From contig JBBSVW010000001.1 of assembly GCA_038046605.1 (NCBI GenBank), positions 1-6,279 on the forward strand: a stretch of DNA of 6,279 bases. The letters run 5' to 3'. Origin of the DNA: Candidatus Micrarchaeota archaeon. GTDB taxonomy: Archaea; Micrarchaeota; Micrarchaeia; Norongarragalinales; SBBD01. The stretch's first letter is position 1; each line of letters begins with the position of its first letter. The notes below the pieces were generated by a model that searched no databases, was not told the DNA's origin, and worked only from the letters and a program-made list of their open reading frames with translations. Positions 2,941-6,279 of this stretch are shown piece by piece. A program made the position numbers and the translations under genes.

Positions 2941-4229
2941 AATTTTCGTCCCCTTTGCAAATTCAGTTTTGCAGGAGACAATCAAGGAAATGCGGTTCGC
3001 GGAGTAAGACCACCCTCGCAAGGGAGGCATCCGGGAATGAAAGTGCTGAGGGATTGTCTGTGCCTCCTAGGCATGGATAATTCCGTTTATGAAGCGGTAT
3101 AGGAAAGAATTTCACTGAGAGTAGTGCTACAAGCCGTTCAGTGGATTGCTAGGCTTGGGTAACGACGACGGGCGCGGCAAGCGGCGAAACGCCCCGGGTA
3201 GGCGCATGCAGCCTTTGATCCGGGGATCCCCTAATTTTTCCGGAAGGAAAGAAGACCGCCTGAATTGAAATATCTTAGTAAGGCGAGGAAAAGAAATCAA
3301 CAGAGATTCCAGTAGTAACGCGAGTGAACCTGGATTATAGGGCAAACCGAATCTTCCCCGCAAGGGAGAAGCATATGTGGTGTGCTAGGCCCCTTTTTTA
3401 ACGCAGTAAGTTAGCCAAGGTTCGTTGGAAAACGACGTCATAGAAGGTGAAAGCCCTGTAGGCGAAAACGATGCTGGGTGTAAGGAGGCCTCGAGTAGGG
3501 CTCGGCGATTTCCGAGTTTGAATGGGAGTATTAACTTCCAACCCTGAATATACCCCAAGACCGATAGCGTATTAAGTACCGTGAGGGAAAGCTGAAAAGC
3601 AGCCAAAAAATGGCAGTGCAAAGTGCATGAAACTGAAACGGCTACATTAAGGTGCGGCTTAAAAGCTGGTATGATCGCAAGTGACAGCGAAGTTGCACCC
3701 TACTTCTTGAAGCAAGAGCCAAGGAGTTCATAGGAGTGGCGAGCATTGAGCGAAGCGAAAGCGAGGCGCACGCACCGTCCGCAAGGACGGGAGGTGCGAC
3801 GTTGTAATTAGCGTCAAGTCACTAATATGAGACCCGAAGCCAAAGCGATCTAAGCGAGCGCAGGGTGAAGCCGTCCTTCCGGATGGTGGAGGCCCGCAAC
3901 CGTTTCTGGTATATCCGATCGGGTGACGCTTGTTTAGGGATGATAGTTCATTCGAGCTTGGCGTTAGCGGGTTCCCTCCGAAGTGTATCTAAGTACAGCC
4001 TCCGTCGAGACTTATAATAGGTAGAGCGACTGATTTGGGGGAGCGGGGAGTAAAATCCTCACCTCCTTGTCAAACTCCGAAGCTATTATGGTCGCAGAAG
4101 CGGGGAGTTGGGATACCCGAGGTAAGCGCGGGTTCCGTGAGGGGAACGACCCCTACTGCGGTTAAGGTCCCAAAGAATTGGCTAAGTGTAAATGCAAGAT
4201 GTCATGGATCTCAGACAGCGGGGAGGTAG

Positions 4230-4975
4230 ACGATACTAGCACGAAAGCAGTTGAAGTTAAGCTTCACTGGAAATCACGTCTAAGAGAACTTATAAACCAT
4301 AAGTTTGATGAGAGATGCGATAATAGATGAAGCCAAATGAACTTGAGAATAAGTTGCCGACAAGGGAGCATATGATTGCTTACCTGTTGGGAGCATTTAG
4401 AGACGGCAGCATTCACAAGTATGGCGCAAGCCGTGAAATAATTGTTTGGCAGAAAAATCCAGTGTGGCTTGAAGGGATTTCATATTTGATTAGGCAGGTT
4501 TTTGAAATCAAGACAATGCCGAAGAAGACGATTGGTGGTTGGAGGTTAAAATTCAAATCAAAGCAAGTATTTGAAATGCTTGTGAAAGATTTTGGTTTTC
4601 CTCAAAGCGGAAAACAAATTTATTGGAAAACGCCTAGTGCGGTTCTTGAGGGAGCAATTCCAAAGGAATCGTATTTAAGCGGATTTTTCGATGCGGAAGG
4701 TTCCGCCCAAATAAAGCCGCCAGCGCTTCATTTTTTCCAATCTTGGAATTTGGAAAACATTTGTCCTCCTCTTGAGGATTTGAAAAACATGATGCAAGAG
4801 TTAAGGATTGATGCGGGCAAAGTCAGATTAAGGAAGCCTACTATTTACGCGAATTATCCAAGGTTTATACTTTCGGTAAGCAACAAGCGCAGCGTAATTA
4901 ATTTTTATCAACAAATTGGATCTCTTCATCCCGATAAGGGAAAAAACCTTCAACTTGCTGCTAGTAACGGCCAAG
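4230..4975 (+). mobile_element. BHB-type 23S intron (746 nt) in helix 43 (GTPase-associated centre), after E. coli-equivalent G1062, carrying a homing endonuclease gene
   Basis: Stem CGaTACTAGCA (4231-4241)/TGCTAGTAaCG (4959-4969), continued by GCAGTTGAAG/CTTCAACTtGC. Central helix AGGT/GCCA pairs at 3 of 4 positions; bulges AG^A and AG^G. Removal restores the H43 length. Confidence 0.92.
4290..4296 (+). promoter_or_regulatory. Putative TATA box (TTATAAA) preceded by purine-rich AAGAGAA, inside the intron
   Basis: Begins 37 nt upstream of ATG 4327. Motif match only, in AT-rich sequence. Confidence 0.35.
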
Positions 4976-4998
4976 GAACAGAAGCTCCCATCCTTTAA
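4327..4998 (+). CDS. Two-motif LAGLIDADG homing endonuclease; the genomic ORF runs 23 nt past the intron end (4975) into 23S exon
   Basis: Motifs YLLGAFRDGS and YLSGFFDAEGS; visibly similar to the 221-799 protein. Confidence 0.92.
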   Translation: MKPNELENKLPTREHMIAYLLGAFRDGSIHKYGASREIIVWQKNPVWLEGISYLIRQVFEIKTMPKKTIGGWRLKFKSKQVFEMLVKDFGFPQSGKQIYWKTPSAVLEGAIPKESYLSGFFDAEGSAQIKPPALHFFQSWNLENICPPLEDLKNMMQELRIDAGKVRLRKPTIYANYPRFILSVSNKRSVINFYQQIGSLHPDKGKNLQLAASNGQGTEAPIL

Positions 4999-5527
4999 AC
5001 AACGCGTAACAGCGGACCCGTCAAGATTCGTGGCGTCGTAAACTATCGGGACTCAAGCCAATCACCGATACCGTGGAATTGCATAGTTAATGCAAATTTG
5101 GTAGGAGGGCGAACGGGCTGGGCAGAAGTTGGGCTGTGAAGTCCAATGGACCAGCTTGTTACGAAAATCTTGGTGCTAGTAGCATCTATTCCAGGCGAGA
5201 ATCCTGGACGTCGAAAGGGCAAGGGTTTCTTGGCAACGCTAATCAGCCAAGAGTTAGCCGGTCCTAACGCTAAACGTAACCGTGATGCGGAAAGGGAAAG
5301 CAGTTAATATTCTGCTGCCTTCTAGGTGAACGCGGCAACGCAAGCTTACATCTGACGCTTGTGGGTACGCCAAGTGCAAGCAATTGCATTCAAGCTGACC
5401 ATCTCAAAGAAGTCTTGTTGAGAGGAGCATTTGAGAAAGCAGCGATGAGCGATGAGTTTGGCTCAGCCCAAAAGCCCATGAAAAGGGTGTATGATTTTTT
5501 CTAGAAGACCGTACCGAGATCCAGTAC

Positions 5528-5836
5528 ATTCCCGCCTTCCTCAGTATTTTTAATTGTGCAGTATGAAATTAGTATGGTGATATTATGCCTGAATTGCTTG
5601 CTGACGATTTAGTAAAAGTCAATGAATTGTTTAAACGTATAAACACTCGTTTACCAACGGTAATTGAGTTGCATAATGGAGGTACAATCAGACAAGCAGA
5701 GCGAGAAAGACTTGCAATGCAAATAAAAACTTTTGAAGAGGCAATCAAAGAGTTTAAACGCAAGCATGGAGGGCATGATTTTTCAAAATATATTGCTTCA
5801 AAATAATACTTATTACGAGGAAGGCGGGATACTGAA
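5528..5836 (+). other. BHB-type 23S intron (309 nt), after E. coli-equivalent C1617, carrying a non-endonuclease ORF
   Basis: Perfect 13-bp stem TCCCGCCTTCCTC (5530-5542)/GAGGAAGGCGGGA (5817-5829); central helix CAGT/ACTG; bulges AC^A and AA^A; exon stem ATC/GGT. Splicing gives CCAGTAC|AGGTGCCCC. Confidence 0.94.
5585..5806 (+). CDS. Hypothetical 73-aa helical protein encoded in a 23S intron
   Basis: The ORF fills the intron loop. GGTGAT (5576-5581) is exactly complementary to the 16S 3' ATCACC in this window. Start and stop are both inside the intron. Confidence 0.72.
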   Translation: MPELLADDLVKVNELFKRINTRLPTVIELHNGGTIRQAERERLAMQIKTFEEAIKEFKRKHGGHDFSKYIASK

Positions 5837-5976
5837 AGGTGCCCCTAGCTGAAAAAGCTAAGACGTGACAGGAGAACTGACGCAAGGGAATTCGGCAAAT
5901 TGGCCCAATACCTTCGGTATAATGGGTGCCTACATCTCTTCAAAGATTTATCGATGGGGATTTGTAGGTCGCAGTG

Positions 5977-6076
5977 ACTTCCAGCAGAAGAAAGAAAAGA
6001 TGACGAGTCTGAACAACCTCTGATCTATGACGATGTTGATAGCGACGGATTTTTCGATATCTGATGGAGGCTGTAT
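5977..6076 (+). other. 100-nt BHB-type 23S intron, after E. coli-equivalent position 1758
   Basis: Central helix GCAG (5971-5974)/CTGT (6071-6074); bulges TG^A and AT^A; stem CTTCCAgCAGA (5978-5988)/TCTGaTGGAGG (6060-6070). Splicing restores GTCGCAGTG|ACCAGGGG. Confidence 0.92.
5994..6055 (+). ncRNA. Putative box C/D methylation-guide sRNA nested in the 23S intron
   Basis: Box C ATGACGA (6000-6006), 13-nt guide, box D' CTGA (6020-6023), 3-nt spacer, box C' ATGACGA (6027-6033), 12-nt guide, box D CGGA (6046-6049). Terminal stem GAAAA (5994-5998)/TTTTT (6050-6054) is placed as required for a K-turn. Confidence 0.75.
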
Positions 6077-6279
6077 ACCAGGGGACATCGACTGTTTAAC
6101 AAAAACACAAGTCATCGCTAAGTCGAAAGGCTGTATACGATGGCTGACGCCTGCTCACTACTAGTACCTGAACCCGGGTTTCAACCTGGTGAAGGGCTAG
6201 CAAAAAGCGGGAGTAACTCTGACTCTCTTAAGGTAGCGTAATACCTCGCCGCTTAATTGGCGGCTTGCATGAATGGCGT

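Follow-up and report, generated by a model that had tools for sequence, protein, structure and literature searches.

The closest described counterpart of the locus reported here is the guide RNA within the intron of euryarchaeal pre-tRNA-Trp, known from Haloferax volcanii and as sR50 from Pyrococcus, where, according to the available text of two sources (PMC7994747, PMC7714728), an intron of the bulge-helix-bulge (BHB) type is also a double-guide box C/D RNA for two nucleotides of its host RNA. The cis mechanism proposed for that RNA was later revised, as the accessible part of the review relates (PMC7994747). Here, in contrast, the host is 23S rRNA, the targets belong to the catalytic centre, at a distance of approximately 750 to 800 nucleotides in the mature RNA, most relatives encode the guide as a free gene, and the distribution of the intron, which is inserted after position 1758, is patchy and not fixed (23S positions throughout are E. 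coli equivalents from alignment to E. coli rrlB). Because both host and targets are 23S rRNA, we do not assign the locus to the sR50 type (pre-tRNA-Trp, aimed at C34 and U39), although the two would work alike. Among the genomic contexts of archaeal C/D sRNAs in the available text of PMC7994747, the only introns named are those of tRNA, and in PMC6009581, as far as its accessible text goes, introns were removed before the target search.

Archaeal BHB introns of rRNA (Desulfurococcus, Staphylothermus, and Pyrobaculum; PMC3608112, available in part) are similar in being spliced by proteins and in having a central helix with two bulges, whereas the intron described here has no homing endonuclease, has a relaxed outer helix, and carries a noncoding cargo with a predicted function. 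The consulted portion of that 2013 review treats noncoding RNAs from archaeal rRNA introns as an open question. The intron-encoded snoRNAs of eukaryotes are alike in that a guide is released from the intron of a gene to whose output it is coupled, as outlined in the text available from PMC7994747, but they reside in spliceosomal introns of mRNA-like hosts and undergo exonuclease trimming, whereas the present intron sits in the very rRNA that its guide is predicted to target. A guide in an rRNA intron combines two known kinds of element, the archaeal box C/D sRNA and the BHB rRNA intron; the literature that we searched, a collection that holds few subscription papers, contains no report of archaeal rRNA introns with such a guide.

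Free-standing guides for one of the targets have been described. In the accessible text of PMC4644070, guides are predicted to act on U2552 in five of the seven archaea covered, the free sR17 of Methanopyrus kandleri (U2552) has the same GAACAACC core one base before CUGA, and the D' guide of the free sR10 of Nanoarchaeum equitans is used for alignment position U2826. The second guides of both RNAs differ from that of the intronic guide, so that common ancestry with sR17 or sR10 is not established, and the text available mentions no intron location for either. We take alignment position U2826 of sR10 to be the A-loop U2552.

The stretch of DNA that we analyzed (the window, 6,279 nucleotides) is contig C1 of a Candidatus Micrarchaeota (DPANN) genome, G000 (1.64 Mb in 106 contigs, 90.7% complete), and an Rfam search showed that it holds an archaeal rRNA operon in the order 16S 3' part, tRNA, 23S 5' part. 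The 5' two-thirds of the 23S rRNA gene occupy positions 3117 to 6279 of the forward strand, and the gene continues on contig C43 via a 32-nt overlap. The 100-nt insertion in this gene and its box C/D layout, the observation from which this study started, were confirmed. We consider it probable, at nearly nine chances in ten, that the insertion represents a Micrarchaeota double-guide box C/D sRNA that was relocated into a protein-spliced 23S intron, replaced the free gene, and serves methylation of U2552 and U2504. In the mechanism that we propose, the pre-rRNA would fold into a relaxed BHB at 1758/1759, an epsilon2-type EndA would cut after positions 5976 and 6076, and RtcB would join the exons, which are seen joined in RNA contigs. 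The released 100-nt RNA, probably circular, may then be bound by L7Ae at the C/D kink-turn and the C'/D' loop, with recruitment of Nop5-fibrillarin, and by the +5 rule the resulting RNP would direct 2'-O-methylation to U2552 through the D' guide and to U2504 through the D guide.

Compared with its relatives, the insertion measures exactly 100 nt, but on sequence alone the position of the joint slides by 2 nt, and the choice among the sliding joints was made by bulge geometry. BHB introns are cleaved after the second base of each bulge, and this rule, applied to both bulges, gives an intron at 5977 to 6076 (forward strand), between positions 1758 and 1759. The 4-bp central helix is formed by GCAG in the exon, which is followed by the 5' 3-nt bulge UGA (5971 to 5977; predicted cut after 5976), and by CUGU in the intron, which is followed by the 3' bulge AUA (6071 to 6077; predicted cut after 6076). 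The 1758 site could be read by sequence in 38 genomes, of which 13 carry an intron of 100 to 181 nt and 25 are empty; within the genus, all five genomes that have the site carry the intron. The central helix, both 3-nt bulges, and the intron-side helix are kept in 13/13 introns, with CUGU as the 3' strand of the central helix in 10 and CUGC in 3. The intron-side helix shows covariation: in the terminal stem, formed by 5978 to 5987 with 6061 to 6070, the first four pairs are held in 50 of 52 cells over the 13 introns, as C-G, U-A, U.G, or G-C. The contiguous outer exon-exon helix next to the 3' bulge that defines a strict BHB was found in 0/13 introns, and folding predicted a short offset exon helix. 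Therefore, the motif is a relaxed BHB, and the original prediction of a BHB intron held for the central helix and the two bulges but not for a contiguous outer helix. Folding of the whole intron was no more stable than that of shuffled sequences (z of 1.42 and -0.21) and was dropped as evidence.

The missing outer helix raises the alternative that the insertion stays in the mature 23S rRNA, or is cut without ligation, and that joined exons come from intronless strains. The data bearing on this consist of contigs only, from four RNA runs of four studies, out of 24 runs listed. The joint 5976>6077 is present in contigs of all four runs, in one of them with just 19 letters on the short side. Joined exons extend over 395 nt with 1 difference from the host exons in run X3 (record X3-18), over 273 nt with 1 difference in X6 (X6-24), and over 646 nt with 6 differences in X2 (X2-11); the nearest other species differs at 13 positions over the stretch covered by X3. 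The contigs thus fit spliced rRNA of the host species or a very close one, although an intronless strain could look alike in RNA contigs. None of the four runs showed depth on 5980 to 6059, a result from contigs, which cannot show absence, and for the same reason the fact that the back-joint 6076>5977 is unlisted in their contigs is no evidence. A neighboring intron of 309 nt is indeed variable among species of the genus. Nevertheless, the central helix and bulges persist in every one of the 13 introns, every genome of the genus with the site carries the insertion, exact exon joints occur in contigs of three studies, and the intron is without cover in all four runs. Furthermore, the splicing endonuclease EndA of G000 is of the epsilon2 type, which accepts and cuts relaxed motifs, as reported in the accessible text of PMC12397907. 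We consider an unspliced insertion extremely unlikely. The RtcB ligase gene is also present in G000. Of the structures compared with its EndA, the most similar was PDB 4FZ2 (E = 3.5e-126 over 375 residues), which we take to be the ARMAN-2 epsilon2 endonuclease.

The loop of the intron holds a complete double-guide box C/D sRNA, with boxes C, D', C', and D in order and guides of 13 and 12 nt, within the 10 to 13 nt expected for the class (all on the forward strand). Kink-turn stem I (5994 to 5998) forms five pairs with 6050 to 6054 and is followed by the 3-nt bulge GAU (5999 to 6001); it covaries among the 13 introns, its first two pairs being Watson-Crick in 13/13 as A-U, C-G, or G-C. The sequence fits kink-turn geometry, as both stem I and the bulge recur throughout the 13 introns, although weakly in G020, and the GA dinucleotides are kept in the intronic copies except in one box D. 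By box pattern, box C reads AUGACGA (6000 to 6006), and it is followed by the 13-nt D' guide (6007 to 6019), box D' (CUGA, 6020 to 6023; CUGA in 12/13 intronic copies), a 3-nt spacer, box C' (AUGACGA, 6027 to 6033), the 12-nt D guide (6034 to 6045), and box D (CGGA, 6046 to 6049), which is identified both by box pattern and by covariation with box C. This layout, including the 13/3/12-nt spacing and the GAU bulge, stood as first proposed. So did the suggestion that C6004 of box C compensates by pairing with G6047 of box D, as these two bases, a U.U in the consensus, form a Watson-Crick pair in 9/13 intronic copies (C-G in 4, G-C in 3, A-U in 2), the others being U.U in 1 and mismatched in 3. 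Across the intron alignment the guides are invariant, while the stems vary with compensation and length ranges from 100 to 181 nt.

In an Rfam search of the intron loop, 10 of the 13 matches at E<=10 were C/D families, all below the gathering score. The best match was to sR2 both for the intronic copy (26.1 bits, E = 0.00042, gathering 42) and for the free copies (32 bits against 42). Membership of a curated Rfam family was rejected because all scores fell under gathering, and the class, archaeal box C/D sRNA, is unaffected. A second CUGA at 6061 to 6064 was rejected as box D, since it lies in the terminal stem, is unconserved, and would leave a guide of 27 nt.

The rest of the host 23S gene lies downstream of the window, as anticipated, and helix 92 and both predicted target sites were found on C43. 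Over the 3,564 nt of exonic host rRNA, the D' guide finds its best match at G000:C43:1633, equivalent to U2552 in the A-loop, with 9 Watson-Crick pairs and 1 G.U; positions 6010 to 6019 pair with 2548 to 2557, and the +5 base A6015 falls opposite U2552, exactly as the original prediction had it. The best target of the D guide is G000:C43:1585, equivalent to U2504 in the peptidyl-transferase loop, with 9 Watson-Crick pairs and 2 G.U; here, 6035 to 6045 pair with 2500 to 2510, and the +5 base A6041 falls opposite U2504. Both targets belong to domain V, at a distance of 48 nt from each other, and the loop that the D guide matches, which contains C2503 and A2505, is specific to the lineage. The exact target that had been named, AGGUUGUUC, is absent from host helix 92, which reads GGGUUGUUCAUCC, with GGGUUGUUCA at the U2552 target, such that U6019 forms a G.U pair at +1 and U6010 gains a pair with A2557. 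The first interpretation, a U2552 guide aimed at its own rRNA, was supported as regards the putative D' target but was incomplete, having missed the D guide for U2504, by which it is extended, and the fact that this is an otherwise ordinary Micrarchaeota guide, free-standing in most genomes. Shuffled guides matched the host rRNA as well in 133/2,000 cases for D' and 68/2,000 for D, giving a joint chance of approximately 0.002 as the product of both, before the 48-nt spacing is counted. Each match alone is only modestly above chance, and the weight of the targets comes from their lying 48 nt apart together with conservation and covariation. These data suggest that U2552 and U2504 are most likely the targets for 2'-O-methylation by the intron RNA, which predicts a ribose methylation at U2504 in the host catalytic centre; no report of Um2504 was found in the literature searched, part of which was available only in excerpt.

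Two other pairings were considered and rejected. As an exact target, AGGUUGUUC has seven matches in the genome, namely the guide itself and six in non-rRNA-looking sequence, and the true target has G there. An additional pairing of 6007 to 6014 with the helix 93 word GUUCAGAC of some archaea fails because the host reads GUUCAGAAC and because these guide bases vary among orthologues.

We then compared guides and targets over 79 genomes, in 67 of which the 2500 region, and in 66 helix 92, could be read, the rows of G051 and G179 being read by hand. Boxes and guide persist in all 13 orthologous introns. At +5, the D guide forms a Watson-Crick pair with its target in 67/67 genomes (A-U in 64, C-G in 3), the C-G pairs belonging to genus g30 (3 genomes), in which U2504G in the target occurs together with A>C at guide +5. 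In G019, U2555A in the target occurs together with A>U in the guide, and the +6 pair of the D guide (U-A 46, C-G 17, U.G 4 of 67) tracks position 2505, with A2505/U and G2505/C separating the host order from the others. Related genomes are not independent, so these compensations represent about three events. Positions +2 to +7 are paired in 61/66 genomes for the D' guide and in 64/67 for the D guide, where G014, G104, and G137 each have a single mismatch. Some changes are uncompensated: G142 carries U2555A with no matching change in the guide, G154 and G115 have a mismatch at +3 of the D' guide (G2550U), and pairing of the D' guide with helix 92 is lost in genus g30. In that genus (L115, L116, L118), a lineage with U2555C, the D' guide is replaced, and the rRNA parts searched for a new target of it yielded nothing convincing. 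In locus L194 (G129:C57), an insertion between 2553 and 2555 splits the A-loop target, which thus forms only after splicing; this genome has a free guide.

The covariation bears on whether the RNP, although a real C/D RNP, acts mainly as a folding aid that holds 2500 to 2510 and 2548 to 2557, or methylates U2552 only because its D half is impaired. Chaperone roles for double guides have been proposed (PMC4644070, in the text available), and the location of both targets within 48 nt of domain V would suit such a role, as would the absence of any Um2504 report from the literature found. The boxes point the same way: the box C core UGAUGA is present in 1/13 intronic but 62/64 free copies, and box D is CUGA in 3/13 versus 61/64, as parsed, a divergence that could mean weaker D-half activity. 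However, a folding aid would not readily account for a D-guide +5 pair that is Watson-Crick in every genome read and that changed with its target in g30, the divergent box positions are mostly compensating pairs (9/13), and chaperoning and methylation can coexist. We therefore regard a mainly chaperoning or U2552-only RNP as unlikely, and methylation of both sites as the preferred reading.

The proteins that such an RNP would use are encoded in the genome, as genes for L7Ae, Nop5, and fibrillarin are all present in G000. Um2552 is a near-universal modification, made by RlmE/FtsJ in bacteria and by snR52/Spb1 in yeast. In G000 the FtsJ model gave nothing over cutoff, and TIGR00438 at E<=1e-20, a search that matched 5/14 controls, found RlmE in 0/151 genomes of the phylum. 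The L7Ae gene (G000:C43:4217-4567) and the 23S gene lie on opposite strands, with L7Ae approximately 2.3 kb downstream of where the 23S ends. A strict C/D pattern detected five loci in G000, and the four listed are the intron and three free-standing canonical C/D sRNAs at C32:2353, C78:16797, and C89:47304 (minus strand); these three have weak rRNA targets, and two of them have near-identical D guides.

In order to follow the guide across genomes, a sequence-only model was built from 19 copies (5 intronic, 14 free) and searched with strict filters, with 80 candidates scored per genome and two long copies reported in halves. In the host order, 58/68 genomes have a guide locus, one each, including 22/22 of those at least 90% complete; the ten genomes with no model match are 68 to 88% complete, and a second weak match in G032 has other guides. 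Of these 58 loci, 13 belong to introns at 1758, and the other 45 are free-standing with canonical boxes. The model search found a second guide locus in 0/13 intron carriers and no genome with both forms, and all 23 host-order genomes with a verified empty 1758 site have a free copy (23 of the 45 free-copy genomes). Two genomes are less clear: the empty site of G056 is on one of two differing 23S pieces, which may be foreign, and G037 (72% complete) is intronless by coordinates yet has no model match. In G000, a looser search found no other guide copy at E<=1, and a motif scan found one stray D'-guide-like word on C72, lacking box C. Since carriers yielded no guide copy besides the intronic one, that copy appears to have replaced the free-standing gene and would be made once per rRNA transcript.

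Over the phylum, the model matched 79/151 genomes of a sample (also that of the RlmE search) that includes the unpublished genome G094, used in these tallies only, with 1/46 in family f13 and 6 weak matches of 25 in family f14. A scan of GTDB genomes for both guides gave 17 loci, 16 of them titled Micrarchaeota, Micrarchaeia, or Norongarragalinales, one of the last being the intron of the closest relative. Of the 18 best copies from other orders, none is at the 1758 site, and their flanks are not rRNA-like. In two genomes of family f23, in another order (G154 and G115), the 1758 site is empty and the same guide sits in another 23S insertion, near position 2309. This second intron site, in helix 84, lies at L185:1700-1830 and at L186:1571-1745, both on the reverse strand, with insertions of approximately 112 and 155 nt and box D read as AUGA. 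The location of the other-order copies off the 1758 site, together with the second intron site, suggests that the free-standing gene is likely the ancestral state and that it was captured by introns at least twice.

On a tree of 23S exons (40 of 41 rows considered; G030 was left out for low cover, and G013 and G036 were labelled by their free copy), the intron label requires 5 changes, 4 of them forced by well-supported branches, although such counts cannot tell gain from loss. A single clade of intron carriers was rejected (p-AU 1.3e-6); carriers occur in five families, in three of which they have free-copy sisters. The C' core UGAUGU is found in 10/13 copies at 1758 but in 3/64 free copies, and this common core hints at one origin for most 1758 copies and hence at sideways spread or repeated loss.

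A patchy distribution of this kind would also be expected if a selfish intron had caught a decaying guide copy, with the modification supplied from elsewhere or dispensable. The same operon is rich in homing-endonuclease introns, and the tRNA-Trp intron guide could be removed with no effect on viability (PMC7714728, as far as available). A decaying passenger is nevertheless hard to reconcile with guide cores that stay invariant over 13 introns from five families even as the remaining intron sequence diverges. Moreover, no free copy was found in the carriers, RlmE was not found, and the intron encodes no endonuclease. We judge this explanation very improbable and favor a functional, relocated guide.

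The usual view of introns in archaeal rRNA is that they are selfish or neutral. As the sole detected guide for A-loop U2552 and U2504 in a phylum in which RlmE was not found, this intron would represent an rRNA intron that has gained a host function, with guide supply tied to rRNA transcription. Introns are the dominant location of guides in vertebrates, and the occurrence of this guide either in an intron or as a free gene, a pattern that extends over five families and two intron sites, provides a natural experiment on the movement of guide RNAs into introns. It is possible, although we would lean against it, that guide capture is a general route by which endonuclease-free rRNA introns become indispensable and spread: the intron would have moved sideways between families, recipients would have lost the free gene and become unable to drop the intron, helix 84 would mark a second capture, and the guide might act in, or fresh from, its own pre-rRNA, so that splicing would time modification and folding of the catalytic centre.

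Several other features of the operon were observed. LAGLIDADG-type ORFs lie inside three rRNA insertions, at 221 to 799 and 1106 to 1750 in the 16S gene and at 4327 to 4998 in the 23S gene, and a 16S insertion of approximately 50 nt (approximately 958 to 1010), directly ahead of the second endonuclease intron, has no C/D pattern. The spacer tRNA (approximately 2346 to 2560) is split by approximately 150 nt of hairpin-rich sequence; its Rfam match covers 2346 to 2414 only, and ARAGORN reported no tRNA in the window. A 120-aa ORF at 2578 to 2940, in the 16S-23S spacer, matched no Pfam family over cutoff. The 309-nt 23S intron at 5528 to 5836, present in G000 and in none of four other species of the genus, is skipped in the RNA contigs and contains a 73-aa ORF (5585 to 5806) with no Pfam match. 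The 23S 3' part on C43 has three more insertions (L002, approximately 295 to 1028, 1225 to 1333, and 1353 to 1558), beside helix 80 and the 2449 to 2480 region, in which a C/D pattern scan found none. No further guide-bearing intron was detected in G000 rRNA by a relaxed C/D pattern. In 44 relatives, whose rRNA loci cover part of the 23S only, a strict pattern detected no intron carrying another guide.

DPANN and variants at 2503 and 2505 go unmentioned in the available main text of a preprint that deals with divergent active sites in archaea (bioRxiv 2024.11.12.623245). The catalytic centre of the host (G000:C43:1581-1640 in L002, positions 2500 to 2559) has the unusual residues C2503, A2505, A2499, A2557, and U2558. 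Every Micrarchaeota locus read has C2503, whereas A2505 is found in most of the host order and G2504 in genus g30.
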